From: an uncultured Bacteriovoracaceae bacterium
GTDB taxonomy: Bacteria > Bdellovibrionota > UBA2394
Direction: 5' to 3'
Length of the DNA stretch: 64,000 nucleotides
NCBI GenBank assembly: GCA_964655245.1
Contig: CAZZLQ010000001.1
Span: 2,537-66,536 of the forward strand
How positions within the stretch are numbered: position 1 is the first letter of the stretch; the number at the start of each line of letters is the position of its first letter. Positions 27,037 to 54,857 of this stretch are shown here, piece by piece. Made by a program: the position numbers and the translations under genes. The notes below the pieces were generated by a model that was given only the letters and a program-made list of their open reading frames with translations, did no database searches and was not told the origin of the DNA.

Positions 27037-27837
27037 ATGGTTCGGCGAACACTAGTTTATGATGCAGCATCACTACTGCGCGTAAAGCGAGAGAAGGCGC
27101 GTGAGGAAGCGGCCAAGCTGGATCCTAAAGGTCTGGAGGCGGCGCCTTCAACGCAGCCGGACTCAAGCTTAGAGCCCGACTCTCCTATGCGTGTCTTCGA
27201 TCATGCGGATGAATTCGTGGAGGTGAATAAGCCTAAAGTGTCGCAAATGATTGGAATCATTGGGGAAATGAAGAAAATGGCTGAGGCCTCGACGAATTCG
27301 GCTCTTTCCGATGAGGACCGCAAGCAGCTCAACATTAGGTTTGTAGAGAAGCGATCGAGTATCGATCGAATGGCAACTGAAACCGAGTTTCTCGGAAGGA
27401 AACTTTTTAACGGAGATCTCATGCGTGGATCTTTAAAGATTCCTGTAGGGAAGGGGCCCCTTGATGTTGTGGAAGTGCGTTTTGAGTCACTGAAAAATGA
27501 TATGACAGGCCTTGAGGGGCAAAAGATCGATACGTTGGTGAACGCTCGTAACGCCCTGAGGGAGATGGATAACGTCTACGCCCGATTTCAGCTTGTTGGG
27601 ATGATGTTCAAAGCAAAAGAAGATGAAATCAACGTGAAGCGTAAGCAGTTCATCGATGAGAATCGTATTCCTGAGGAAGTGGCAAATGCTCGAAAGCTGA
27701 AAGCCATTCAGGAGGTCGCCAATAAGCGACAGGAAGTGCAGCGAATGACTCTGCATATTGAGTTGAAAGAAGAGCAAGAGAGAATCGCTGAGTTCGAGGG
27801 GAGAGAGCGGGCACTTCTCATCAATCGAAAAATCTAA
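27037..27837 (+). CDS. Divergent flagellin-fold (D0/D1-only) protein lacking the canonical N-terminal secretion/D0 segment
   Basis: The central region aligns motif-for-motif with flagellin N-domain D1 (ASTNSALSDEDRKQL..IDRMATETEFLGRKLFNG...IPVGKGPLD...GLE versus TNSQSDLDSIQ..IDRVSGQTQFNGVKVL...IQVGANDGE...GLD). The C-terminus resembles the flagellin C-terminal D1/D0 (KIDTLVNARNALREMDNVYARFQ...IDEN..EEVAN...KAIQE). The conserved GLRINSAKDDAAG block is absent. Confidence 0.5.
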   Translation: MVRRTLVYDAASLLRVKREKAREEAAKLDPKGLEAAPSTQPDSSLEPDSPMRVFDHADEFVEVNKPKVSQMIGIIGEMKKMAEASTNSALSDEDRKQLNIRFVEKRSSIDRMATETEFLGRKLFNGDLMRGSLKIPVGKGPLDVVEVRFESLKNDMTGLEGQKIDTLVNARNALREMDNVYARFQLVGMMFKAKEDEINVKRKQFIDENRIPEEVANARKLKAIQEVANKRQEVQRMTLHIELKEEQERIAEFEGRERALLINRKI

Positions 27838-27838
27838 G

Positions 27839-30235
27839 CTAATGACTCATGGAGATTTCGGCTGCAGTATGCTTCCTCAAGCTCTTGAGGGGCGTCACAA
27901 ATGTCTCCATCAGATTCGGGGGTAAATCAAAAACGTGAAGCAGTACTTCATCCATATCAACGACTGGATGAAACTTAAAACTCTTAAGGATAGAAGAGTC
28001 GATTTCAGAAAGTTCTCTGAGATTGTCCATGGGGTAGACAATTGTATCAACACCCGCTCGCTTTGCCCCCAAAAGCTTTTCCTTGAGTCCTCCAATAGGC
28101 AAGACTCGACCTCGCAAACTGACTTCACCGGTGAGGCCCACTCTACGATTTACTTTCCAGCCTTTGATGGCGGAGAGAATGGCCACCGTTAAAGCTGTTC
28201 CCGCTGAAGGGCCATCCTTTGGCGTAGCGCCTTCGGGAACGTGGATGTGCAGATCGTGTTTTGAAAAAAAATCTGGCTCAATTTCAAACAGGGTGGCTTT
28301 CGATCGGATGTAGCTAATTGCTGCTCGAGCAGACTCTTGCATCACTGAGCCCAGTTGGCCCGTGATTTGGACGTCACCTTTGCCTATCAGAGAGACGGCT
28401 TCGATTCGAAGAACTTCGCCACCCACTGGAGTCCATGCCAAACCAGTTGAAACGCCTACATCATCGATGGGGCCAAGCTCACTTCGTTTGAAACGGGGCG
28501 CACCAAGATATCTCTCCACAGCCTCCTCGGACCATGCTCGAGGGCTTGGATGCGGGATCCCTGAGCTCTCCTCCCGAACGATCTTGCGACAAATTTTAGA
28601 AATCTGCTTCTCAAGGTCTCTAACGCCAGCTTCGCGCGTGAACCGACGAACAATGTAGGCGATGTCCTTTTCTGCAAGAGCTAGATCAGTTTCAGAGAGC
28701 CCATGGTTTCTGAGAACCTTTGGAACAATATAGTTTTTAGCTATTTGAATCTTTTCATCTTCAGAGTAGCCACTCAGTTGGATGATCTCCATTCTATCCT
28801 TGAGGGGTTGTGATATGGAGTCTGTGAAGTTTGCTGTGCAGATAAAGAGAACTTTGGAGAGATCATACTCGAGTTCCAAATAGTGATCTGAAAAGTGTTT
28901 GTTTTGTTCAGGATCGAGAATCTCAAGCAATGCTGATGCGGGATCCCCTCGAAAATCAGATCCCATCTTGTCGATTTCATCTAGCAAGATCACCGGATTA
29001 CTCACTGAAGCCTTTCGAATTGCAGAGATCACGCGTCCAGGAAGAGCGCCGATGTAGGTTCTCCGGTGACCTCGAAGCTCAGCTTCATCTCGTACTCCAC
29101 CCAAAGAAATCTTTTCGAACTTTCTATTCAAGGATCGAGCAACCGAGCGAGCCAAAGATGTCTTTCCAACCCCAGGAGGTCCCATCAGGCACAGAATGGG
29201 CGATTTGTGCTGAGTCACTCGGGCCCTGACGGAGAGGAACTCTAGAATGCGATCTTTGGCATCTTGGATGCCGTAGTGGTCCTCATTAAGAATTCGCTCT
29301 GCCTGCAGAAGATCTTTGGAATCCTCTGATAGTTCATCCCACGGAAGATCAAGAATGAGGTCGACATAGGCCCTGACCATCTGAGCTTCGGCTGCGTGCC
29401 CACCTGCTTTCAAACGCTTGATTTCCTTCAGAGCTTTTTCCCTAGCGTAGGCTGGCATCTTCTTGGACTCTAACTTCTTTTCGAGTTCAACGGCTTCAGA
29501 GCGGGGGTCTAGATTTTCCTGTCCAAGCTCCTTCTGGATGGCGGCCATTTGCTCGTGGAGATAGTAATCACGATGAGATTTTTCAATCTGCTCCTTTACC
29601 TTGCCTCTGATTTTTCGATCCAGTTTCAGAATCTCAATCTCAGCCAAGATGAGCAGGCTCAAGGCTTCTAGGCGTTCGGGAGCGGGCAGAGTATCTAAAA
29701 TTTTCTGCTTATCTCTCAGTTTCACGGAGATTTGAGAGGCAATGACATTACAAAGGCGATGCGGAGATTCAAGACTGTCGAGGCTTCGGAAAACCTCGTC
29801 TAAGGGGCGGCCACTGTTTTTGAGATATGCCTCATAATGAGTCAACAGCGTTCTCATGAGAATACGTTCCGCACTTGTCGCCGTATGATCTTCATCAGGT
29901 AGACGCTCGACCGATGAAACCAGAAAGCCATCCGTGTCTCGGAGACTGTTGATCTTGGCTCGGAAAAGGCCCTCAACCACAACCTTGAGATTGCCTTCGG
30001 GCATTTTGGTCATGTGCTTGATTCTCGCAATCGTTCCAATGGAGTGGAGATGTTGAATGGCGGGATCTTGAACCTGCGGCTCGCTTTGAGTCACAAGAAA
30101 GACAATTCGGTCATTTCCATCGGCGACATCAATGGCTCTGAGTGATCGACTGCGACCCACATACAGAGAGACACTGGTGTTTGGAAAAACAACAACGTCA
30201 CGAAGTGGAAGTACGGGAAGAGCGCTTAGATTCAT
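27839..30235 (-). CDS. lon: ATP-dependent Lon protease
   Basis: 798 aa with a Lon N-domain, AAA+ Walker A (GPPGVGKTSL) and a C-terminal serine protease domain (PKDGPSAGTALT). Confidence 0.95.
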   Translation of the reverse strand: MNLSALPVLPLRDVVVFPNTSVSLYVGRSRSLRAIDVADGNDRIVFLVTQSEPQVQDPAIQHLHSIGTIARIKHMTKMPEGNLKVVVEGLFRAKINSLRDTDGFLVSSVERLPDEDHTATSAERILMRTLLTHYEAYLKNSGRPLDEVFRSLDSLESPHRLCNVIASQISVKLRDKQKILDTLPAPERLEALSLLILAEIEILKLDRKIRGKVKEQIEKSHRDYYLHEQMAAIQKELGQENLDPRSEAVELEKKLESKKMPAYAREKALKEIKRLKAGGHAAEAQMVRAYVDLILDLPWDELSEDSKDLLQAERILNEDHYGIQDAKDRILEFLSVRARVTQHKSPILCLMGPPGVGKTSLARSVARSLNRKFEKISLGGVRDEAELRGHRRTYIGALPGRVISAIRKASVSNPVILLDEIDKMGSDFRGDPASALLEILDPEQNKHFSDHYLELEYDLSKVLFICTANFTDSISQPLKDRMEIIQLSGYSEDEKIQIAKNYIVPKVLRNHGLSETDLALAEKDIAYIVRRFTREAGVRDLEKQISKICRKIVREESSGIPHPSPRAWSEEAVERYLGAPRFKRSELGPIDDVGVSTGLAWTPVGGEVLRIEAVSLIGKGDVQITGQLGSVMQESARAAISYIRSKATLFEIEPDFFSKHDLHIHVPEGATPKDGPSAGTALTVAILSAIKGWKVNRRVGLTGEVSLRGRVLPIGGLKEKLLGAKRAGVDTIVYPMDNLRELSEIDSSILKSFKFHPVVDMDEVLLHVFDLPPNLMETFVTPLKSLRKHTAAEISMSH

Positions 30236-36865: not shown

Positions 36866-38656
36866 TTAAAAGCCAATATTAAGGCCAGCGGGGCGCAGAT
36901 AGCTTAGCATCCGGTCTAGCGATTCCCTCACTCGAGTCAGCACTTGAGCTTGCATTTCAGATTTGGGTCGCCCTTCGTATTTCTTTTGTCCCTTTCCGTG
37001 AGGAAAGGTCTCCACCTTGAGCATTTCACCAGTGGGTGAATACTTCACGACAATCGTGCCTTCATCCTTGAGGGTAATGGATTGGGGCTTTCCATACTCC
37101 CAATAGGTGAACGCGATTTCATCGCCTTTGAGTTGATCTCTCAAGAACAAGAGCTTTCCGTTCTTGTTGTATTGTAACTTGAGATGCATCGTGGGTTTAC
37201 TCGCGGCAAGCTCTTTGGCTTCAACGAGATTGCATCGTGGGTCAAAAGTGAAGTTGAGAGAAGATTCCTTTCCTTGAGCAGTTTTGAGAGCAATCATCTT
37301 CACTTGGCTGCATCGTGCTTCATAGTCAAAAGTCATCAGGTCGCCTGAGGGAACTGACTGCCGACTGATCATGTTTCCTGTATTGGGATCATAGACGTAT
37401 TTGTCCCCTTGTCCTCGGGCATCTAAGACAGACGCGGGATAGCCTGTTTCCTTGGAAAATGTCTTCGTCTCTCGAGATGTTTCTTTGTCGGAGGAGTCAT
37501 GTTTGCTCACCCGCTCAAACTCTTTGAGTTTGAACTCATGAATCTCTTTCCCGACGTAGCGATCACCCTCGTACTTGGAAATTTCGGTAATGCTGTGACT
37601 GCTGTTGTTCCCTGGAAAGCTGCGAGAGTACTTAGACACCTTTGTTCCGGGCCCGGACTGCTTGGCGACTTCGTACTTGGCATTGTACTCGAATCGAATC
37701 TCTTCTTTGTCCTTCCCGGGAGCGGAGGTGATCATTTTGGTCATATTGCCTACTTTGTCGTACTCAAACTCCATTTTCTTTCCAGAGACATCGGTGAAGG
37801 ATTTTAAGCGGCGAGAGGGCAGCATTTCATAGGTTGCCTTCCGACCGAGTGAGTCAGTGATTTCTCGAACGAGTCCCTTGAGCGCTGAATCCGCTTGATA
37901 GGCTAAGTTCACGGATCGACCGCACATATCATTAATTCGAATCAGATTTTCGTCAGCGTAAGCATAGTCAATTGCGTTTCCGTTTCGATCCTCAGATCGA
38001 ATGAGTCGGCCCGATGAATTGAAAAACTCCTGGGAGGAATTCTGGAACCGCCTTACAAAAGTACCATCGGGTCGAAGCTCGATGGTCGAAGGTCCTCTGG
38101 CAAAGCTATAGTACGTCCCGGGACCTGCCATCGGTTGAGTCGCAAGGAGCTTGCTCGCCAGCTGTTCTCGGAAGCGCTCTTCGTTGATGAGTTTGCGACG
38201 AAGTTCCTCATACGCCGTTGGCGATTTGATTCCTCCCGCCTGCACATCGACTTTCTTTTGAGCGACAAGAATCTTTTCAATCTGAGCGGTCTTTGCTTCC
38301 TCGAGATTCCGCTCCTTGGTGTAAACGTTAGTGAAGCCGTCTCCCTCCAAAACCTCGATTCTGGCTGGCGCTCTCTTCACACGAATATTGTGATTGAATG
38401 TCCACTTATCTCCAAAGATGCTCGAGTTTCCCGAGTAGGAGTTGTAGGCCATTTTGAGTTCAATCGGAGCATAACAAGGTAGTGCGAAGTGATCTTCAAT
38501 CGGTAGAAAAAAGTTTAAGGTGCGTACATTCACAGGATCAGGAGGATAGTGATAGAAAAATGTTGTGCCTTGCGGGCCGTACCCAAGTGACTCCTCATGA
38601 GACGCGCTGGCTGTGACAGACAGGCTGAAGATCAGTCCAAAGCAGAAGAATTTCAT
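36866..38656 (-). CDS. Secreted YD-repeat (RHS-like repeat) protein, no recognisable C-terminal toxin domain
   Basis: Signal peptide MKFFCFGLIFSLSVTASA, then multiple YD-type repeats (NAIDYAYADENLIRIND..GRSVNLAYQ..., GRKATYEM..., KMEFEYDKVGNMTKM, IRFEYNAKYEV, KYVYDPNTGNMIS, MTFDYE). Confidence 0.7.
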   Translation of the reverse strand: MKFFCFGLIFSLSVTASASHEESLGYGPQGTTFFYHYPPDPVNVRTLNFFLPIEDHFALPCYAPIELKMAYNSYSGNSSIFGDKWTFNHNIRVKRAPARIEVLEGDGFTNVYTKERNLEEAKTAQIEKILVAQKKVDVQAGGIKSPTAYEELRRKLINEERFREQLASKLLATQPMAGPGTYYSFARGPSTIELRPDGTFVRRFQNSSQEFFNSSGRLIRSEDRNGNAIDYAYADENLIRINDMCGRSVNLAYQADSALKGLVREITDSLGRKATYEMLPSRRLKSFTDVSGKKMEFEYDKVGNMTKMITSAPGKDKEEIRFEYNAKYEVAKQSGPGTKVSKYSRSFPGNNSSHSITEISKYEGDRYVGKEIHEFKLKEFERVSKHDSSDKETSRETKTFSKETGYPASVLDARGQGDKYVYDPNTGNMISRQSVPSGDLMTFDYEARCSQVKMIALKTAQGKESSLNFTFDPRCNLVEAKELAASKPTMHLKLQYNKNGKLLFLRDQLKGDEIAFTYWEYGKPQSITLKDEGTIVVKYSPTGEMLKVETFPHGKGQKKYEGRPKSEMQAQVLTRVRESLDRMLSYLRPAGLNIGF

Positions 38657-38767
38657 TATGTTAAGAACGGAAAGCACTTCTTCAATGATAACTGAAGCTG
38701 GGGATTTTCAGGCAGAATTTCCTTTAGGGAAAGCGTTGGAAATGGTGCGAAGCGTCGATGATTTAGC

Positions 38768-46206: not shown

Positions 46207-47352
46207 TCAGCGATTTTGGCCTTGAAGTGCTGAGCGCTGCTGTCTTTGAATCGAAAGGTTGCGGCGAGTCCATTTGACGATGATATCCACCATCCGGTGA
46301 TAGTGGAAAATGCCACAGTGGTCGTCATTCTTGATTAAAATCAGCCTATTGCCTGGAAGCGAGCCCAGCTCAACCGTGTCCTGAGGATCGACGATCGTAT
46401 CCTGATCCCCATTCATGGCAAGAATGGGCCCCGAGGCACAGTGAATGAGCTCCTCCGCGCGGCGGCTCATTTTTTTTATAATGGGCAACAGTAAGAGAGG
46501 GTGGCTTACCCCAAAAATCCTAATCAAAGCCTCGGCGATGATGGGGTTGAGCCCAATTCCTTGGCCTGAATTGAGAGTTTTCTGCAGAGGGATTCCATTG
46601 CAGATAGCGAATTTGATTCGAGGGTCGGTCTTTGCCGTGATGAGGGTCCAAAATGCTCCCATGCTAAAACCAACTAGGCCGATTTCTTGGCTGTCCACCC
46701 ACGGTAGCTTGATGATGTCATCAATCACTTGATGAAGAACTCGATCCGAGAAAGCCGTCATGGGCTTTTCATAGTCAGCTGATCCGGGAACGGAAAGAAC
46801 TGCATATCCAGGGCCTTCGTGAAGATAGTGCTGGAGCGAGAACGCAATCTCTTCGGCGGACCCTTCGAGTCCATTGATAAAAATCGTGACGGGTGCCTTT
46901 CCGTTGAGATTTGAGGGAGGTGAAAGGTAATAAAAAACATCTCCCTCTGTGGTGCGAACGCGACGAGGCGCAAAGCTGAGACCTCTTTGTTGATTCCACT
47001 TCAAAAACGAAGCTCGTTTGAGATCATTGATCTCTTCTTTCCACGGCTTATCATCTTTGGGAAACACGCCCATGATGTAACTCATGCAGGCCGCTCGGTA
47101 GTTTTCAGCTCTTTCAAATTCAAGACCCTTGTCTCGCCAAAAATAAGTCCAGTCTTTGGATGCAAGCGAGGGAACTTCCGAAAGAATCCGCTTCGCCTCA
47201 TCCATGGGGAGTTCGGCGCCAAAGCCGTAACGAGCAACAGTGATCTTAGGTAAGAAGCTTTTGACATCAATGAAGCGGGAAAACAGACCCTGGGAATTGG
47301 TCATACTGACCAACGAATAGAGTAAGTCTTGTGCAAATTTGTAGAAACCCAT
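46207..47352 (-). CDS. Alpha/beta-hydrolase fold protein (FrsA/DUF1100-like esterase)
   Basis: Nucleophile elbow GFSMG, downstream Asp and His candidates (GDQD, DDHCG); 381 aa. Confidence 0.65.
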   Translation of the reverse strand: MGFYKFAQDLLYSLVSMTNSQGLFSRFIDVKSFLPKITVARYGFGAELPMDEAKRILSEVPSLASKDWTYFWRDKGLEFERAENYRAACMSYIMGVFPKDDKPWKEEINDLKRASFLKWNQQRGLSFAPRRVRTTEGDVFYYLSPPSNLNGKAPVTIFINGLEGSAEEIAFSLQHYLHEGPGYAVLSVPGSADYEKPMTAFSDRVLHQVIDDIIKLPWVDSQEIGLVGFSMGAFWTLITAKTDPRIKFAICNGIPLQKTLNSGQGIGLNPIIAEALIRIFGVSHPLLLLPIIKKMSRRAEELIHCASGPILAMNGDQDTIVDPQDTVELGSLPGNRLILIKNDDHCGIFHYHRMVDIIVKWTRRNLSIQRQQRSALQGQNR

Positions 47353-47362
47353 GAGGATTTCT

Positions 47363-49099
47363 TCATTCTATATCAGTTCTCAGAATCCACCAGGTGCCTA
47401 GAAAAGCGGCGAGGATTAGCAGCAGAGCAGCAAACTCAGACTTCGGAACAAACAACAGAAGTGCAATGAAGGCTATTGCAAACACAAGACTCATGCGCCG
47501 TGCGGATTTGAACCATCGTGAGGCCGAAAACGGAGCAGCAATGTCTTCCACTCGGTCGCTGTAAACATGAAAGCCCGTATTCGATAGGTCAGTGGATGTC
47601 GTTTCAAGAGGAGATATCAAAACCTTCTTCCAAAGGGGATGCGAGTTTGATGCAGATGTCTTGAGGTCCCAGGCTGCAACGATTTCAGCAGCAACAGGGT
47701 CTTGTTGGTATTGATATTGATGAAAGCGATCCTCAGCCTGCATTCTTAGCATTTCCCGTTCCACAGGAAAGAGATCGAAATCAAGAGTGGAAGGACATTG
47801 GGCGGGTGCCCATTTCATTGACGCTGAGCTCAGAAGTCCCCACTTAAACTGGGATGACAAAACGGCAGCACCTTGTTCGGCATCCGCCTTCAGATTCGAC
47901 TCCAGAGCAATCGCAGCTACAATATTTTCATTCAGGGAGAGCAAGACAACAATCAAGTTGCTGTCGATGGCCTGCTTGAGAAACTGACGTCCTTCATTGC
48001 TCATTGAGGTTTGCAAAATGCGATGCCACCCGAGAGATCCGAGAACAAATTGAAAGAGCCCTCCTTGAACATCACGAACGCTTCCTTGAATTCCCAAATG
48101 TTGCTGAAGAGCCGTCTCTTTGACTTGAATCAAATCCGTCTTCGGTGATGAGAGATGATCCACGATCGCTTTACAAACTGGATGTTCGCTTGTGAGCGCA
48201 ACTTTATACAGAACTTCTTCGATCGACTTGTCGGGCCACTCGTGAATGGATTCGAGCCACACATTACGTACCTTCAGTTCGGGTTGAGTGAATACTCCCT
48301 GAAAGTGGCTGAGCAGGATTCGAACGGAACGAGCGCCTTTGAAAAAACTCCAGTCCAAACATCGCCAGAGTTGAGATTCTGATTTCTTGAAGAGCTGGTT
48401 CAAAATCGCGAGGTGGAACGGCCAGCAGGCAACAGCGAGAGCAAGTGGCAGAATGCTAAGAGGAAGGGGTCCGCGTGTTATCCACAGAAGGCCGAATCCT
48501 GCAATCGTCAGCACAATAAGAAGCGATCTCAGTGAAGAGTTGCCCACAGCCTGGTGCCAGAGCTTATCTTGTGTCTGAAAATTTTTGTGAAGGCTCTGCC
48601 GCCATGATTTGGCTTCAAAAAGTCGAAACCAAATCCAAAGGCTGCTGAATGAAAACGAAAACAACGGCTTCCAAAGGACACCCTGAGGAAAATCCTCAAG
48701 TAAGAAAGTCACCGTGAAAACAGAAATCCAGAAGTCCGATGAAATGAAAAACTTCGCTTTATTTTTGGAGGCCGACAGCCAGGCTGAGCGCCACAGCGAT
48801 GGAAGTGAAAAGACAGCAAGGCCAAAGATACTCACGAGTTCCTGCCAGAGGTTGAGCTCAGATGGAAACCAAAAGGCTGCAATCATGAGGCCCAGAGCCA
48901 CGATGAGGGTGGCTTTCATGGACCAGAAGAACCAGCCAAATCCGCGACCTCGTTCAAGCCTCCAAAGCAAATAGGCCCCAAGGCTCGAAAGTCTCGATCT
49001 ACTGTCGGGATTAAACCGATGAGTCATCCGACAAAACGAGGAGTCTGCGGGTCTATCAAACACGTTAACGTCCTGTACTTTTTTCTTTGGGACTTTCAT
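47363..49099 (-). CDS. Degenerate heavy-metal (P1B) P-type ATPase-like membrane protein lacking the actuator domain, the DKTGT phosphorylation motif and GDGxND
   Basis: Multi-TM N-terminal half with a CWP motif in a TM helix (cf. CPC), ~35 aa later SHFQGVFTQPELKV where DKTGTLTEGKPEV is expected, then a P1B N-domain-like stretch (SEHPVCKAIV, GIQGSVRDVQGG, IVAAIALESNLKADAEQGAAVL) and two C-terminal TM helices. No TGES or GDGIND. Confidence 0.55.
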   Translation of the reverse strand: MKVPKKKVQDVNVFDRPADSSFCRMTHRFNPDSRSRLSSLGAYLLWRLERGRGFGWFFWSMKATLIVALGLMIAAFWFPSELNLWQELVSIFGLAVFSLPSLWRSAWLSASKNKAKFFISSDFWISVFTVTFLLEDFPQGVLWKPLFSFSFSSLWIWFRLFEAKSWRQSLHKNFQTQDKLWHQAVGNSSLRSLLIVLTIAGFGLLWITRGPLPLSILPLALAVACWPFHLAILNQLFKKSESQLWRCLDWSFFKGARSVRILLSHFQGVFTQPELKVRNVWLESIHEWPDKSIEEVLYKVALTSEHPVCKAIVDHLSSPKTDLIQVKETALQQHLGIQGSVRDVQGGLFQFVLGSLGWHRILQTSMSNEGRQFLKQAIDSNLIVVLLSLNENIVAAIALESNLKADAEQGAAVLSSQFKWGLLSSASMKWAPAQCPSTLDFDLFPVEREMLRMQAEDRFHQYQYQQDPVAAEIVAAWDLKTSASNSHPLWKKVLISPLETTSTDLSNTGFHVYSDRVEDIAAPFSASRWFKSARRMSLVFAIAFIALLLFVPKSEFAALLLILAAFLGTWWILRTDIE

Positions 49100-49457
49100 T
49101 AGTCTCCTGCTTCAAAAGATCCTCGAGTGATTTCTTTCCTCGCCGCATTTCGGATTTGAGATATGAATCTTGTTCCTGCTCCAAGGCTCCACTAATCGCG
49201 GAAAGACTGTCTGGATGTGCGATCATCGAAAGCGCTCGAATGGCGGCAAAGCGGACCTGTGGATCTTCGTCCCTTAAACGTTCAGCAATGGACGAGATAG
49301 TGTCTGGATACTTGAGTTCAGACAATGTTTGTAGGGCGTTGATTCTCAGTTGAGCAGACGAGTTTGAAAGCTGCCCCATCCAATAGCTTTTGTTTTGCGA
49401 GGTCAGATCGGGACTGACGCTGACCAATAAGCCCAATAAAAAAGAAACCATCATCAC
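49065..49457 (-). CDS. Small HEAT/PBS-lyase-repeat protein with an N-terminal hydrophobic (signal-like) segment
   Basis: DPQVRFAAIRALSMIAHPDSL and NALQTLSELKYPDTISSIAERLRDE form HEAT-like repeat pairs; 130 aa. Overlaps the downstream membrane-protein gene by 35 nt. Confidence 0.55.
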   Translation of the reverse strand: MMMVSFLLGLLVSVSPDLTSQNKSYWMGQLSNSSAQLRINALQTLSELKYPDTISSIAERLRDEDPQVRFAAIRALSMIAHPDSLSAISGALEQEQDSYLKSEMRRGKKSLEDLLKQETNESPKEKSTGR

Positions 49458-49996
49458 AGACTAACCTCTCTGTCTTTGGTTAACTCACGACCGACTTTTA
49501 GACACTGTTCCAAACTCGAGCGAAGGTTCCTCTTCACCTCGTCAATGGAGCCTTTGATTCCCAAGGCTGAGGATCGATCAAGGGTGATTTTGAGAAGTGT
49601 CTTGGCCTCTTCAACCTTTTGAAGCTTGCCGCGTCCATCAACAGACTTTGTCTTGTGCTCGACTTCGACGAGCTCGAGTTTGAGCGCTTGGAGATCATCA
49701 AATTTTTGGAAGACCTCACGGGCTCCTTCGCCGATTTTTTCACCTCGACCAGAGAGGAGCCACTGATAGCCCGTACATTCGAGCCGCTCAGCACTGGGAT
49801 TGGGGGGGAGATCTCGCCAGACACTGATCGTGGCTATGCCATTCTCAATCCGAACGAAATCATAGGAAGTTCGAAAATCGGGCTTCAAGTAGATGATTTC
49901 AAGGGTCTTCAGGAGGCTTTCTTCCTTACTTGCCAAAACCGGAGCCAGCGTCCCGAGGAAGAATGACATAAGCAGTAGACGATTGGCTTTCATCAT
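49454..49996 (-). CDS. Hypothetical secreted/periplasmic protein
   Basis: Signal peptide MMKANRLLLMSFFLGTLAPVLASKE; 180 aa; 4-nt overlap with the HEAT-repeat gene. Confidence 0.5.
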   Translation of the reverse strand: MMKANRLLLMSFFLGTLAPVLASKEESLLKTLEIIYLKPDFRTSYDFVRIENGIATISVWRDLPPNPSAERLECTGYQWLLSGRGEKIGEGAREVFQKFDDLQALKLELVEVEHKTKSVDGRGKLQKVEEAKTLLKITLDRSSALGIKGSIDEVKRNLRSSLEQCLKVGRELTKDREVSL

Positions 49997-50006
49997 TATT
50001 AAAGTA

Positions 50007-51413
50007 ATGAGTCAGTCACTGGACGGCAAGGTGAAAGGAGCCTTCGTGAACTCTCAAATCCAACGATTTCAACACCCTCTGAGTGGCCGCTATGCGAGCC
50101 CGAGTATGCAGTACATTTTTTCAGACTTTTACAAGGCAGTGGCCTGGCGAAAGATTTGGGTGATCTTGGCCGAGGAGCAGCGACGATTGGGACTGCCCAT
50201 TTCAAAACTTCAAGTGCGGCAAATGGAGAAGGGGCTTGAGAAAGTCAAGTTGGAGCGAGTGGCCCACTGGGAATCGAAGCTTAAGCATGATGTGATGGCT
50301 CACCTCAAAGCCTTCGCCGAAGTTGCCCCTAAAGCTGAGCCCATCTTGCATCTTGGAGCAACGTCAGCCTTCGTCACCGATAATGCCGAAGCTCTCATCA
50401 TGAGGTCTGCCACTGAACTTCTTCAATCCAAACTCTTGGTGATTTTGAAGGCTCTCGATCAGTTGAGTCTTAAATACTCCGATCTTGAAATGACGGGCTA
50501 TACTCACTTTCAGCCCGCTCAACCTGTGACATTGGGCAAGCGTCTTGCGCTTTGGGCTCAGGATTTGATGTGGGACTACGAAGAGCTTTCGTTGGTTTTG
50601 CAACGATATCAACCTTTGGGGTGTAAGGGTACCACCGGGACTCAGGCTTCTTTCATGGTTTTGTTTGAGAACGATTTCAGGAAAGTGACTGCGCTTGATC
50701 GAGCGGTTGTCTCTAAAATGGGTTTTAAAAACCCAGTGGGCTTGAGCGGACAGACTCTCTCGCGGAAAATGGATGTTTGGTTTGTTCATGCATTGGCTAA
50801 CCTTGCCGCTTCAATTTCCAAAATGTCTTATGATTTGCGCTTGCTTCAACATCTCGGCGAGCTCAAGGAGCCCTTTGGATCAGACCAGGTTGGATCCTCC
50901 GCGATGCCTTACAAACAAAATCCCATGATGGCAGAGCGAATGACAGGGTTGGCTCGCCATATCATGACTTTGTCTCAAAACGCGATTTGGACTCACTCCG
51001 TTCAGTGGCTTGAAAGGTCCCTCGATGATTCAGCGAATCGTCGACTCACATTGCCGGAGGCATTCCTCACGGCCGACGCTCTGTTGGAGACTCTGCATCG
51101 TCTGGTGAAGGGAATGCGAGTTGAGGAAAGGAATATTCGCAATCACCTCGATAAACACCGCGCTGCGTTCGAAACTGAAGCGTTGATGATGGAGGAGACG
51201 CTCAAGGGGCGCTCTCGCCAGGAAATGCATGAGGAGATTCGAAAGCAGATGCTTCAAGGAGCGCTTAAGGCTCAAGGAAGTCGCTGGAAGTTGTCTGGAG
51301 CTTCAAGCCAGCAGGTCAGAGCTTTTTGCAGGTCGTCTCTCAATCCAATGCTGAAACGTGAATGGAAAAGATTAAAGCCCTCTGATGATTTGTTTGGAAG
51401 TCCTTCGGTGTAG
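50007..51413 (+). CDS. purB: Adenylosuccinate lyase
   Basis: Fumarate-lyase superfamily signature (GSSAMPYKQNP) plus ADSL-specific regions (YTHFQPAQPVTLGKR). Start taken at the internal ATG at 50007; the ORF-track start at 49893 is antisense-overlapping. Confidence 0.88.
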   Translation: MSQSLDGKVKGAFVNSQIQRFQHPLSGRYASPSMQYIFSDFYKAVAWRKIWVILAEEQRRLGLPISKLQVRQMEKGLEKVKLERVAHWESKLKHDVMAHLKAFAEVAPKAEPILHLGATSAFVTDNAEALIMRSATELLQSKLLVILKALDQLSLKYSDLEMTGYTHFQPAQPVTLGKRLALWAQDLMWDYEELSLVLQRYQPLGCKGTTGTQASFMVLFENDFRKVTALDRAVVSKMGFKNPVGLSGQTLSRKMDVWFVHALANLAASISKMSYDLRLLQHLGELKEPFGSDQVGSSAMPYKQNPMMAERMTGLARHIMTLSQNAIWTHSVQWLERSLDDSANRRLTLPEAFLTADALLETLHRLVKGMRVEERNIRNHLDKHRAAFETEALMMEETLKGRSRQEMHEEIRKQMLQGALKAQGSRWKLSGASSQQVRAFCRSSLNPMLKREWKRLKPSDDLFGSPSV

Positions 51414-51523: not shown

Positions 51524-52375
51524 TCATGGTCCAAAGCTAAACAGCACTCCTCGTTCGGAGTCGTACTCGCCGTCGAGACTATGTCCCGATGTGCTTCTGA
51601 GTTCCGCTGTTGGACGAATCTTGATCAAAAGCCATGGTGACCACTGCGGCCAGCCGTTGAGCGGCATGAAGCGCAGTGTATTGCAAACATTGCTAGGCGG
51701 TGGACAGCGCAAGCACACCTGTCCGCTCAGCGCTGGAATGGTGATGTTCCCCCCGGCAAATGAAAGTCCCGAAATCTGAAAGGCATCATTCCACATATTG
51801 GAACAATAGTTGTTAATGTTCGGGTAGATGGGTTTTGAAAACTGCACATCGATGGGATTGCCCGGCATAATCAAATAGGACTCGGGCTTGATCTTGCTCA
51901 CATGAAATGCCCCACCGCTTGCATTGGTTGCAAACTCTTCTGTTCTAAATTCGAATGAGTAAGGCGCAATGAGATAGCCTTCACTGTCTTTAAGATATTC
52001 AGTGTAAACGCGGTATGTAACGCCGGGATCCATCGCCATTGGTGAGCCGTTGATCATCCGTGTGAATTCTAATCGGCTGTTTCCGTTGGTGAGTTGAATT
52101 TGACCGGCAAGAGGATTGCCAGCTTCATCCTCGATTCTAAAACTAAAATAATCGATGGAGCGCTGATCCAGAGGTCCAGAGAACTGAATAAGAACTTCGG
52201 CGTCCATAGGAATCTCTTCATCGTTTTCAAAAGGGTAGTGTTCGACAACTGAAACAGTTGCCGAAAGATTCGCATTTCCTACTCGGTTCACCTTTGTGGC
52301 GGAGAGATCTGCCATGCAGCCGGACAGACCCCATGAGAGCGCAATCACAAGAGGGCTCAAGCTAAGCTTTTTCAT
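51524..52375 (-). CDS. Lipoprotein with an Ig-like (SbsA/Big_5-type) domain
   Basis: Lipobox LSGC after a signal peptide; the Ig-like-domain pattern (VLIQFSGPLDQRSI...FRIEDEAGNPLAGQIQLTNGNSRLEF...GVTYRVYTEYLKDSEGY). Confidence 0.6.
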   Translation of the reverse strand: MKKLSLSPLVIALSWGLSGCMADLSATKVNRVGNANLSATVSVVEHYPFENDEEIPMDAEVLIQFSGPLDQRSIDYFSFRIEDEAGNPLAGQIQLTNGNSRLEFTRMINGSPMAMDPGVTYRVYTEYLKDSEGYLIAPYSFEFRTEEFATNASGGAFHVSKIKPESYLIMPGNPIDVQFSKPIYPNINNYCSNMWNDAFQISGLSFAGGNITIPALSGQVCLRCPPPSNVCNTLRFMPLNGWPQWSPWLLIKIRPTAELRSTSGHSLDGEYDSERGVLFSFGP

Positions 52376-53610
52376 AAGCCACCGCCTCCTAAAAAGTTAA
52401 ACAGAAGGGCTCTAGGATCCTGAAAGCCTGTTGGCAAAGTCATTCCTGAGAAGTGCAAAAACGCTCCTGCTGCCATTCCATTGTTTTCGAGCGCTTTGGG
52501 CGTAGATGTTCCAAAGCTCTCGAGATCAAAAAATCCGCTGAGAACGACCACGACGGCTTGGGCAATATCGTCAGGATAGGTTTTTCCGGGATCCAACTCG
52601 AACACGAGAACGCGTCGGCCGTTTTCCGTTCGAACTTTACCCGAAAGTTGCTGATAAAAATTCTGCTGAACAAACTGGTTCCATGCAGCTGTATTGTTCA
52701 TGGCATTACTCATGTTTTGAAGGAGGTTGGATGTCATTGTTGAAGAGCTCAAGACTCCTACGACCATGCCTCCAAATTGGCTGATTGGGGTTGGCGGAAT
52801 TTCAGGACGCTGCACGAGGGCTGAGGTCGTCTCCGAAAAATGCCGAATCGGTTCAGTAAACAAAACACGAATCGGGGTGTTGGCCACCCAAGTGGTGTAA
52901 CTCGAGATCGCATCTCGCAACGATTCGGATCCAAAGCTTCCTCCGGAGATGAGTTTGCCCGGTGTGATCGCTCGAATTTTGAGAAACGCTTGAGATGAAT
53001 CTGAGTATTGATTGGATGTGATGAAAGTGGTGCTTCCGCTAATCAGGGGCACGGTGCCCGATTCGTCGCGGATTCCAGTGAGCTCTGCGGGGGCATTGGC
53101 AGATCCCTCGGGGCTGGCTCTCCACATCAAAAAGTATCGCCGCATGGGCAGGAAGAAGCGATTGGGAGGGCGCAGCTTCAGTTGAGAAACCAGGACGGGG
53201 TTTCCATTGGCATCCTTTGCTCCGGAAGGATCGGGAACAAAGCGTGCTGTCGGAGTAACATTTCCAGGAACTCGAGCTCCTTCATCAGTAAAGAGTTCAA
53301 AGTTTTCCGGACGAGCAGAGTAGGCATCAATTCGGCGATTGAATGTGATCCGAATCTCTTCATCGGGATTTACTCGCATCTGTTCGTTGATGGGAAGAAA
53401 GTTGACGACAGGCCGACCAGCGGAATCCTTGATTGCACGCCCCGATGCATCTCTTTGCACTCGCTCAACGCCAACTTGAGTGACTTCAAGTGTGCCTGCT
53501 AGGTTTTCGTAGTATTGAGGTGAGGGGCTTTGCACGCCGCCGACACAGGCACTGAGTAAAGTGCAGGCTGCAAAGAGAGGGCTTAGTTTTTGTTTTGAAA
53601 AAAATCTCAA
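52372..53610 (-). CDS. Lipoprotein with Ig-like domain(s), paralogous to its neighbours
   Basis: Lipobox LSAC; Ig-like domain pattern (EEIRITFNRRIDAYSARPENFELFTDEGARVPGNV...). ATGA overlap with the downstream gene. Confidence 0.6.
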   Translation of the reverse strand: MRFFSKQKLSPLFAACTLLSACVGGVQSPSPQYYENLAGTLEVTQVGVERVQRDASGRAIKDSAGRPVVNFLPINEQMRVNPDEEIRITFNRRIDAYSARPENFELFTDEGARVPGNVTPTARFVPDPSGAKDANGNPVLVSQLKLRPPNRFFLPMRRYFLMWRASPEGSANAPAELTGIRDESGTVPLISGSTTFITSNQYSDSSQAFLKIRAITPGKLISGGSFGSESLRDAISSYTTWVANTPIRVLFTEPIRHFSETTSALVQRPEIPPTPISQFGGMVVGVLSSSTMTSNLLQNMSNAMNNTAAWNQFVQQNFYQQLSGKVRTENGRRVLVFELDPGKTYPDDIAQAVVVVLSGFFDLESFGTSTPKALENNGMAAGAFLHFSGMTLPTGFQDPRALLFNFLGGGGL

Positions 53611-53642
53611 AAGAAAATCTCCCCTGGTTATCTTTCCAACAA

Positions 53643-53712
53643 CCTTTCAAAGCAAATCACTGCCTCTTGATTTGCTTTGAAAGGGGCTGAAAGCTTCAAC
53701 AGCGTTCAGCCC
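53643..53712 (-). terminator. Two stacked perfect hairpins (17-bp stem with 8-nt loop, then 8-bp stem) within the lipoprotein operon; candidate internal terminator or attenuator
   Basis: CCTTTCAAAGCAAATCA-ctgcctct-TGATTTGCTTTGAAAGG (perfect 17-bp arms, 53643-53684) immediately followed by GGGCTGAA-agcttcaacagcg-TTCAGCCC (53685-53712). On the minus strand the large hairpin is followed by a T-rich tract (TTGTTGG). Confidence 0.55.
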
Positions 53713-53739
53713 TTTCGAAGGTAAGATATTGATCGGGTC

Positions 53740-54708
53740 TTAGTTACCCGTTGTGAATGGCGAGAAGTACGAGCCATTCATATAAACTTCCGCATTGGAG
53801 CGTAAGCTTCTTGCAACAACCAACAAGTAGTTCTTGTTGGGAACGAAGCCGCTACCCCCAGCGCTAACAATCACTTGGTTGCCCTGAACCTGAGCTTGAA
53901 CGCCCGGGATCGGATTCAACAGAGGCATTCCAGGAACCCATCCCGATTGAAGTTCATAGATTCGAATCGAGCTCGCAACAGTCAATTGATCCACGGAATC
54001 ATTGAACTGAATGATGATACTGGTGTTCGGAGGAACGTTACCGATTCCTAGGAAATTTCCGAACAAGCCGCTCAAAATGCTCGTTCCAAAGGTTTGACCG
54101 AAGCTGGTCCAGTCGAACACAAAGTTTCCGGCCGCATCAACAGAGCCAAATTGATCGACGTTTGTTGACTTAAGCTGTCGGGGAATTCCCACAACGGCGT
54201 AAGGATAAAATTGCTCAGATTGTGCACAACTTGAGCCCAGGATGTCCCCAGTCGTAAAAGTCACAGAGTCTCTTTGAATGCCGACAGATCCAAAGGGAGT
54301 ATCGCGGAAGGACATTCCGTAATTGTGATTGGGGATGAGAGCTTTCTTGGGCTTAAAGATAAACTTACAGCCTTTAGAAACGTCTGCAGGATCGACCAAC
54401 ATAGGAGCCGCCATTGTGGTGTCTACGGGAACATCAGGACCCGTGTTCATTGAGAACAGCGTGAAAGCCGATGAAACATCGTTCCAGTTACAGGCACGAG
54501 CATCGCCCACGGACACAGTGAATGTGCTTCGTCGGCAGACGTTGGATTGTCCTTGAGTGGGGTTGATCCATGTGACGGAGTCGGGATCAGCATCGACGTT
54601 TTCATTTGGAAACGGTCGACCGCCAGATCCACCAGATCCACAAGCATTCAAAAGAAAGCCTGCGACAAAACTCAATACGAGAGTTTTGGTTTGAATTGAA
54701 GATTTCAT
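53740..54708 (-). CDS. Lipoprotein with Ig-like domain(s), first gene of a three-paralog cluster
   Basis: Start taken at the internal ATG at 54708 (MKSSIQTKTLVLSFVAGFLLNACGSGGSGG, lipobox LNAC); Ig-like pattern (TWINPTQGQSNV..STFTVSV...). The ORF-track start at 54777 adds 23 non-signal residues. Confidence 0.6.
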   Translation of the reverse strand: MKSSIQTKTLVLSFVAGFLLNACGSGGSGGRPFPNENVDADPDSVTWINPTQGQSNVCRRSTFTVSVGDARACNWNDVSSAFTLFSMNTGPDVPVDTTMAAPMLVDPADVSKGCKFIFKPKKALIPNHNYGMSFRDTPFGSVGIQRDSVTFTTGDILGSSCAQSEQFYPYAVVGIPRQLKSTNVDQFGSVDAAGNFVFDWTSFGQTFGTSILSGLFGNFLGIGNVPPNTSIIIQFNDSVDQLTVASSIRIYELQSGWVPGMPLLNPIPGVQAQVQGNQVIVSAGGSGFVPNKNYLLVVARSLRSNAEVYMNGSYFSPFTTGN

Positions 54709-54857
54709 AGTGTTCTTACCTTCCCTATTTTTTTGAAGTCGGATTCCCTTCTTAAAAGGCAAGAAATAGCGCCCCAACTTCTTGGCACTACTCCCATCAA
54801 AGGCCTATGATCGCAATCCTTGTGCCAGGTATGAAAAAGAGTGCGTGGTAGGCTAAG

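Follow-up and report, generated by a model that had tools for sequence, protein, structure and literature searches.

The gene examined here lies on the minus strand of a 64,000-nucleotide (nt) stretch of DNA from an uncultured Bacteriovoracaceae bacterium (the whole stretch being called the window), and it encodes a 578-amino-acid (aa) membrane protein that we call the ATPase-like protein. Few membrane machines are understood as well as the P-type ATPases, for which the phospho-aspartate and the actuator domain (A-domain) are the defining features in the field. The ATPase-like protein has neither, and our analysis points with high confidence to a maintained, non-pumping derivative of the P1B (heavy-metal) ATPases. 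A preliminary description, made from the sequence, had reported a membrane-protein open reading frame (ORF) with a P1B skeleton at this place; the ORF is there, and its product is organized as follows.

47363..49099, minus strand: the ATPase-like gene, for a P1B-ATPase-derived membrane protein of 578 aa; intact ORF without A-domain, His265 in place of the catalytic Asp
48590..48937, minus strand: four N-terminal transmembrane (TM) helices, equivalents of MA, MB, M1 and M2 (residues ~55-170; hydropathy, hhalign columns, column counts)
48536..48589, minus strand: short M2-M3 loop (residues ~171-188), the site of the A-domain in real P1B ATPases (gap in hhalign and MAFFT)
48389..48535, minus strand: M3 and M4 (residues ~189-237), with C225-W226-P227 at the CPC position within the second helix (hydropathy, alignment, column counts)
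48287..48310, minus strand: former DKTGTLT phosphorylation loop, now SHFQGVFT (residues 264-271; alignment, column counts)
47885..48244, minus strand: nucleotide-binding (N) domain (residues ~286-405; alignments to TIGR01525 and CopB, N-domain alignment, conservation counts)
47660..47884, minus strand: second half of the phosphorylation (P) domain (residues ~406-480; family/P1B alignment, column counts)
47366..47509, minus strand: two C-terminal TM helices, equivalents of M5 and M6 (residues ~531-578; hydropathy, hhalign columns)

The ATPase-like gene and its P1B ancestry

The ATG at 49099 has an AGGAG Shine-Dalgarno sequence 4 nt ahead of it, none stands ahead of the alternative Met25, and residues 1-24 are kept in the orthologs; for these reasons the long form, starting at 49099, is the likely product. 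About 50 residues precede the helices, with one semi-conserved cysteine, Cys23, and Pfam gave no match to a heavy-metal-associated (HMA, CxxC) domain in the protein. The family thus differs from the many P1B ATPases that have an N-terminal HMA domain, a feature that is common and not universal among them. The N-terminal region also carries an "F-C" motif (residues 22-29; the column is present in 21 sequences and is Cys in 19), which is confidently predicted as a short hairpin before MA.

By hydropathy, the protein has four TM helices (~55-165), a loop of ~22 residues, two further helices (~190-236), a soluble region of ~290 aa and two C-terminal helices, the last pair having been noticed from the start. 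As predicted in this way, the layout is that of a P1B ATPase minus its A-domain. Two members of the family, P0030 (L010 5001-6320) and P0036 (L011 4314-5621), are shorter (~435-439 aa) and start at the M1 "D" motif without MA and MB; since the HEAT-repeat gene described below abuts both of them, gene order indicates that the short form is real, with a 6-TM core.

Using a number of different approaches, we find that the similarity to P1B ATPases goes far beyond chance, which bears out the P1B skeleton that had been proposed. The NCBIfam model TIGR01525 (ATPase-IB_hvy) aligns collinearly with residues 268-417 (E=3.2e-8, a match far below the trusted cut-off of the model). With hhalign, the family aligned over the whole P and N region with one genuine P1B ATPase, P0040, which carries HMA, TGE, CPC, DKTGT, SEHP and GDGSND (97.9%, E=5e-13), and over 524 columns with a profile of 11 genuine P1B ATPases (99.5%, E=2.9e-22). 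The alignment spans family positions 20-557 and ATPase positions 62-736, including MA to M6, and its one large gap is exactly the A-domain. An AlphaFold2 model built on the 37-sequence family alignment without templates was confident (predicted local distance difference test, pLDDT, 87.1; predicted template modelling score, pTM, 0.83), and an earlier model from only 5 close sequences (pLDDT 53.8) was discarded. When the retained model was compared with the Protein Data Bank (PDB) by Foldseek, all 50 matches listed were P-type ATPases; the best seven were P1B (AfCopA 7r0g at E=4.6e-16, LpCopA, ZntA and ATP7B), and KdpB came next. E1-type states gave it higher TM-scores (0.53-0.59) than E2P states did (0.35-0.40), a difference that carries little weight in a predicted model. 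Simpler searches gave little, with only noise in a Pfam scan of the protein (E>0.1) and marginal matches in sequence searches of the PDB (CopB, E ~0.3-1).

The traits that survive are those of P1B ATPases. The eight-helix (4+2+2) topology of P1B is present. The M1 "D" is kept as D122 (33/37), and the M2 "R..EA" motif (R159 in 32/37, E162 in 31/37) stands opposite the "G..lE.rAk" of the ATPases. The HP dipeptide specific to the P1B N-domain is retained (H306 in 36/37, P307 in 37/37); in the window it is part of the SEHP at 304-307, which, like the IALESNLKADA at 397-407, had been picked out in the preliminary description and is present. With CopA, ZntA and ATP7A/B the family therefore has in common the helices MA-MB-M1-M6, the M1 "D", the M2 "R/G..E.A", the proline kink of M4, and a P-domain of the haloacid dehalogenase (HAD) type with an inserted N-domain, the HP motif and the hinge. 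These ATPases differ in having the A-domain with its TGE, DKTGT, TGD, PxDK, GDGxND, CPC, YN and MxxSS, all of which the family has lost. The family descends from P1B ATPases and belongs to the P-type superfamily by descent and by fold.

Lost motifs and what replaced them

An exhaustive profile search of 1.84 billion representative proteins (clusters, where counted below, being one per 50%-identity group) gave 36 matches at E<=0.001. Of these, 35 are family members of 153-584 aa, mostly 410-585 aa and including two fragments, and all of them are without an A-domain; the 36th and weakest is a real ATPase (E=5e-4). No intermediate form, for example one combining an A-domain with a His at the catalytic position, was found among the 36 matches. 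The family was built from this search, as a word-indexed search with the family profile gave real ATPases and not distant members. In all, 37 sequences share the architecture and the substitutions described here, at identities that drop below 20%, and it is these 37, aligned with 11 real P1B ATPases, that underlie the column counts given throughout.

The A-domain and its TGE are missing in 37/37, and one large gap lies opposite them in both the hhalign and the MAFFT alignments; in real P1B ATPases this domain comprises well over 100 residues and carries the TGE loop. The preliminary description had reported that the window protein has no A-domain and no DKTGT, TGES or GDGIND; DKTG, TGE and GDG are indeed absent from it, and alignment, profile and structure agree. 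The segment aligned with the DKTGT loop is, as it had stated, SHFQGVFTQPELKV (residues 264-277). Across the family DKTGTLT has become H(35)/Q(2)-x-x-G-V/I-x-T/S, position 265 being the former phospho-Asp, with G268 invariant (37/37) and T or S at T271 in 30/37. TGD is replaced by S424-S425 (34/37 at each position), PxDK by P445-x-E447-R448 (E and R in 37/37) and GDGxND by W477-D478 (W in 36/37, D in 35/37). The N-domain keeps G336 (36/37) and has acquired a motif specific to the family, W-H-[KR]-[IV]-L-Q-x-E-[MI]-S-x-E-G (in the window W358-H-R-I-L-Q-x-x-M-S-x-E-G370), together with a 5-residue insertion that has no counterpart in the ATPases.

The metal site has fared no better. A CWP motif had been placed where CPC sits, and CWP does occur at 225-227; its C225, however, stands one residue ahead of the first CPC cysteine and occurs in 8/37 members (the window's own clade and three others). 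W226 and F228 occupy the two cysteine positions, and only P227 is kept family-wide (35/37). The YN of M5 and the MxxSS of M6 are metal ligands of the P1B-1 (Cu+) subgroup, with roles described for AfCopA (PMC9433437), and in the family both are gone, the aligned columns holding variable hydrophobic residues; no position of M5-M6 is conserved at >=80%. Because the phospho-Asp, the A-domain that serves dephosphorylation and any recognizable metal site have all disappeared, the ATPase-like protein, as judged from its residues, cannot run the canonical E1/E2 phosphoenzyme cycle or pump metal.

What replaced these motifs is far from random. Of the 15 positions conserved at >=90%, 12 are former signature-motif sites (P227, H265, G268, H306, P307, G336, S424, S425, E447, R448, W477 and D478), and 25 of the 30 positions conserved at >=80% fall in the P and N domains. 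From these counts, the old active site is seemingly rebuilt and fixed, not drifting. The term "catalytically dead", used in the preliminary description, thus holds in that canonical P-type chemistry is impossible; with a pocket that is remodelled and highly conserved, "cannot do P-type chemistry" is the better wording. The ratio of nonsynonymous to synonymous substitution rates (dN/dS, by Nei-Gojobori, window gene against two orthologs) is 0.05-0.09 where dS is unsaturated, and lowest in the P/N domain (0.045-0.06). This indicates that purifying selection holds the family, for a job other than pumping, and that the P+N headpiece is the part under selection, on a retained eight-helix membrane scaffold.

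These data also bear on whether the gene could be a decaying pseudogene, or a normal copper ATPase altered by assembly or a frameshift, and the preliminary description had indeed left room for an intact-looking gene remnant. The absence of the canonical motifs would be all that such an explanation has to offer. The 578-codon frame is intact, the same architecture and changes recur in 37 sequences, and dN/dS is 0.05-0.09, which refutes the remnant; the confident AlphaFold2 model argues in the same direction. No DKTG was hidden in the six-frame translation of the gene and 300 nt on each side, and a degenerate DNA pattern for DKTGT had no match in the whole window with one mismatch allowed. These negative results exclude the frameshift scenario, and decay or artefact as a whole is practically ruled out.

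As for its distribution, the family appears restricted to one lineage, in a group of predatory bacteria, a taxonomy read from a few labels of metagenome-assembled genomes (MAGs). A genome-collection scan gave one match, a Bacteriovoracaceae MAG, with derived patterns so narrow that taxonomic breadth is poorly resolved; further relatives are labelled as "Bradymonadales" and "Deltaproteobacteria" MAGs. All sources label the family proteins "hypothetical".

The cassette and its neighbours

The ATPase-like gene is the last of a three-gene cassette, which stands head-to-head with purB. The neighbouring genes in the window are the following.

49454..49996, minus strand: cassette gene 1, "X", 180 aa, with a signal peptide of the Sec type and a 4-nt overlap with the HEAT gene; in 11/11 loci
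49065..49457, minus strand: cassette gene 2, a 130-aa HEAT-repeat protein (Pfam HEAT_2, E=1.5e-14); in 11/11 loci
46207..47352, minus strand: alpha/beta-hydrolase (FrsA-like), 381 aa, 10 nt downstream of the ATPase-like gene; variable fourth gene
49893..51413, plus strand: purB (adenylosuccinate lyase; TIGR00928, 343.8 bits against a cut-off of 326.2, match from residue 63)

We compared 11 loci (the window, the loci of P0003, and L004-L012). The order X, HEAT_2 and ATPase-like gene, head-to-head with purB (Lyase_1 in 11/11), is the same in all of them, down to ~18-25% identity and even in loci with different outer flanks. In the eight loci measured, X and HEAT are separated by -4 to 0 nt, and HEAT and the ATPase-like gene by -35 to +9 nt, distances that are consistent with translational coupling. 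The HEAT/ATPase-like overlap (49065-49099) is 35 nt in the window's clade; in other lineages there is an overlap of 4-8 nt or a gap of 2-9 nt. Promoter and terminator scans stayed at background level.

X varies from ~150 to 207 aa across loci and has two invariant cysteines, C74 and C165, which likely form a disulfide. The invariant residues of X are W60, P64, P67, E73-C74, Y77, W79, G83-R84-G85, G89, G91 and C165. Its homologs make up 48 clusters, all standalone proteins of ~120-215 aa and all "hypothetical", and many are on contigs equal in size to those bearing the ATPase-like gene. X has no relative in Pfam, NCBIfam or the PDB sequences, and no Pfam, NCBIfam or PADLOC family covers either X or the ATPase-like protein. 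The HEAT proteins have ~118-145 aa and an N-terminus that is short, uncharged and hydrophobic in 8/8 loci. In PADLOC, neither the ATPase-like protein nor X nor the hydrolase matched a defence system, and the HEAT protein gave nothing more specific than a generic match to HEAT repeats. Between the same genome pairs, identity is 54-62% for PurB, 37-45% for X, 32-48% for HEAT and 24-29% for the ATPase-like protein, a pattern in which most of the surface of the last would be free to change while its motif residues are fixed.

The true start of purB is probably near 50007 (Met39), which would leave ~10 nt between the two start codons; in the other loci the start-to-start spacing runs from about -15 to 121 nt. 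With so little space, the promoters of purB and of the cassette must lie inside each other's coding regions. Co-regulation with purine synthesis is one possible reason for the pairing, plain genome compaction another.

As fourth gene, the window and several other loci have an FrsA-like hydrolase; three loci have TrkH-TrkA instead. Here one may consider that the ATPase-like protein is a regulatory partner of a Trk-type K+ uptake system, echoing KdpB, the P1A subunit of KdpFABC, whose partner KdpA is a homolog of TrkH. TrkH and TrkA follow the gene by 16-56 nt in 3/11 loci (L007 7714-10126; L008 7732-10066; L012 6664-9028), and KdpB structures are among the best structural matches, full-length and at TMq 0.54-0.57 to E1 states. 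In KdpB, however, DKTGT, TGES and the A-domain are intact and the 7 TM helices include no MA/MB, while the topology of the family, its HP motif and its best profile matches are those of P1B. In addition, the TrkH linkage is not family-wide: in the window and seven other loci the downstream gene is something else, namely an alpha/beta-hydrolase, a UDP-glucose dehydrogenase, an opposite-strand DUF4442 gene or, in three short contigs (L001, L004, L011), an uncharacterized gene, and there was no trkH among the window ORFs scanned. We consider a Trk partnership very unlikely.

Proposed function and its alternatives

The repurposed pseudoenzyme that the preliminary description had suggested (as a sensor, channel or scaffold) stands. 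Among these roles that of a channel, or of a transporter, is unlikely, since not one residue is conserved in the last two helices and none of the known metal ligands survives. The reading that we favour, with a probability of about 0.5, is that the ATPase-like protein would be a non-pumping, membrane-anchored, ligand-binding subunit, acting as a switch or scaffold together with X and the HEAT protein; the ligand would probably be a nucleotide or a phosphate ester, and ligand binding, complex and role are what we infer from sequence. The three proteins would be made together from a translationally coupled operon, with X secreted and the HEAT protein small, and would form an envelope-associated module.

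What favours the switch or subunit is the make-up of the former phosphorylation pocket, which would be rebuilt from residues able to form hydrogen bonds or salt bridges (H/Q265, G268, T271, S424, S425, E447, R448, W477 and D478). In HAD and P-type sites, the hydroxyl of motif II, the positive charge of motif III and the acid of motif IV hold the phosphoryl group. In the family, motif I has H/Q in place of its Asp, motifs II and III keep the hydroxyl (S424) and the charge (R448), and motif IV is down to D478. The rebuilt pocket would therefore retain groups for holding a phosphoryl, including the Gly and Thr of motif I and one acid of motif IV, beside the HP of the adenine pocket, which is retained as well, and it is this combination that leads us to prefer a ligand-binding switch or subunit. 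HAD phosphatases resemble the family in the fold of the P-domain and in these motif II and III residues; they differ in that the family has His or Gln for the motif I nucleophile and a single Asp for motif IV, and in that its domain lies inside an 8-TM protein with a P1B N-domain.

A second possibility is a pure structural scaffold or anchor, binding no small ligand, in which the conserved residues would stabilize a fold that tethers partners at the inner membrane. That all canonical catalytic and metal-binding residues are gone, that the membrane helices show the low conservation one would expect of a generic anchor, and that the gene is tightly linked in an operon with two small proteins would all fit. 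The residues conserved in the family are mostly polar or charged, though (H265, S424, S425, E447, R448, D478, H306), and they map to the active site and adenine pocket of the ATPases and not to a hydrophobic core, which is a pattern typical of a binding site. We thus regard the pure scaffold as possible, with the odds clearly against it.

The protein could also still be an enzyme with a new chemistry, in which ATP, bound by the N-domain, phosphorylates His265 (giving a phosphohistidine) or is hydrolysed directly, and the phosphoryl group passes to water or a partner without an A-domain phosphatase. The His at the nucleophile position in 35/37, the retained S424 hydroxyl, R448 charge and D478 acid, the HP motif, and the strength of purifying selection on the P/N domain, where it is highest, speak for such an activity. 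Two otherwise intact members, P0008 and P0015, have Gln265, and Gln cannot accept a phosphate, so His265 is probably not a nucleophile; an interchange of H and Q at this position fits hydrogen bonding, not nucleophilic attack. Moreover, motif I no longer has the Asp that coordinates Mg2+, little of GDGxND is left, the adenine pocket conserves neither its Glu nor the first Gly of GxG, and the literature searched held no precedent. We judge this new chemistry quite unlikely.

Several observations weigh against the ligand-binding subunit that we prefer. The clustering of the substituted residues in one pocket is something we infer from homology. The adenine-pocket residues of P1B ATPases such as CopA and ATP7B are an E, an H and GxG, and of these only the H and the second G are kept, E305 being variable and the first G mostly His. 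An extracytoplasmic location is suggested for X and possibly for the HEAT protein, whereas the ATPase-like protein would have its conserved part in the cytoplasm and only tiny loops in the periplasm; with opposite predicted compartments, a physical complex of the three is not obvious. Over the genome pairs compared above, the ATPase-like protein also diverges faster than do PurB, X and HEAT. Finally, wider gene order is common to the lineage too (Alginate_exp, RNB, ABC1, Big_5), so that the adjacency of the cassette genes could partly reflect common descent in a syntenic neighbourhood and not function. For that reason the overlapping junctions are a better argument for a functional unit than conservation of the neighbourhood.

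The literature searched offered one precedent for a degenerate P-type ATPase module, and nothing relevant on bacterial pseudo-P-type ATPases or on HAD folds with a replaced nucleophile. In the guanylate-cyclase chimeras of alveolates (P4GC-beta; Cryptosporidium, gregarines, Tetrahymena), P4-ATPase (flippase) modules have an altered DKTGT Asp and A-domain Glu, and a non-pumping, regulatory role has been proposed for them (PMC13466520). The likeness is that a P-type ATPase module is retained despite the altered Asp. Those eukaryotic modules are of the P4 class and joined to a cyclase, their A-domain fold persists, and their substitutions vary between lineages; the family described here is, in contrast, bacterial, stand-alone and P1B-derived, with the A-domain deleted and a fixed set of replacement motifs. 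Its fold and ancestry are thus known, and its architecture and presumed mode of action would be new.

The family enlarges the very small set of known P-type pseudo-ATPases by a bacterial case that stands alone, and serves as a natural test of what P/N headpiece and M-domain scaffold can achieve when no Post-Albers cycle is left. Three "hypothetical" proteins gain a structural and evolutionary context, and the cassette may occur only in one predatory lineage that has been little studied. The family marks a pitfall for annotation, as pipelines based on fold or profile would call the ATPase-like protein a copper-exporting ATPase. There is also a bolder idea, which we hold to be unlikely: the rebuilt pocket might be a new type of active or switch site, either for a phosphotransfer centred on His265 that needs no A-domain or, as the invariant head-to-head pairing with purB prompts us to consider, as a nucleotide-gated switch relaying the purine-nucleotide state across the inner membrane to X and HEAT. 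If true, either would give the P-type ATPase fold a mode of action that is not known for it.

A few other features of the window deserve mention. Beyond purB, three successive Big_5 immunoglobulin (Ig)-like proteins of 283, 412 and 345 aa are encoded at 51524-54777 on the minus strand, at least the first two with lipoprotein-like N-termini, and Big_5 genes adjoin purB in most related loci. A 603-aa protein encoded at 36866-38677 on the minus strand, with RHS repeats and DUF6531, has a polymorphic-toxin architecture and is unrelated to the ATPase-like gene. At ~27800-28000, GC skew drops from ~+0.14 to ~0 where gene orientation turns from plus to minus, which may be a coding-strand bias.

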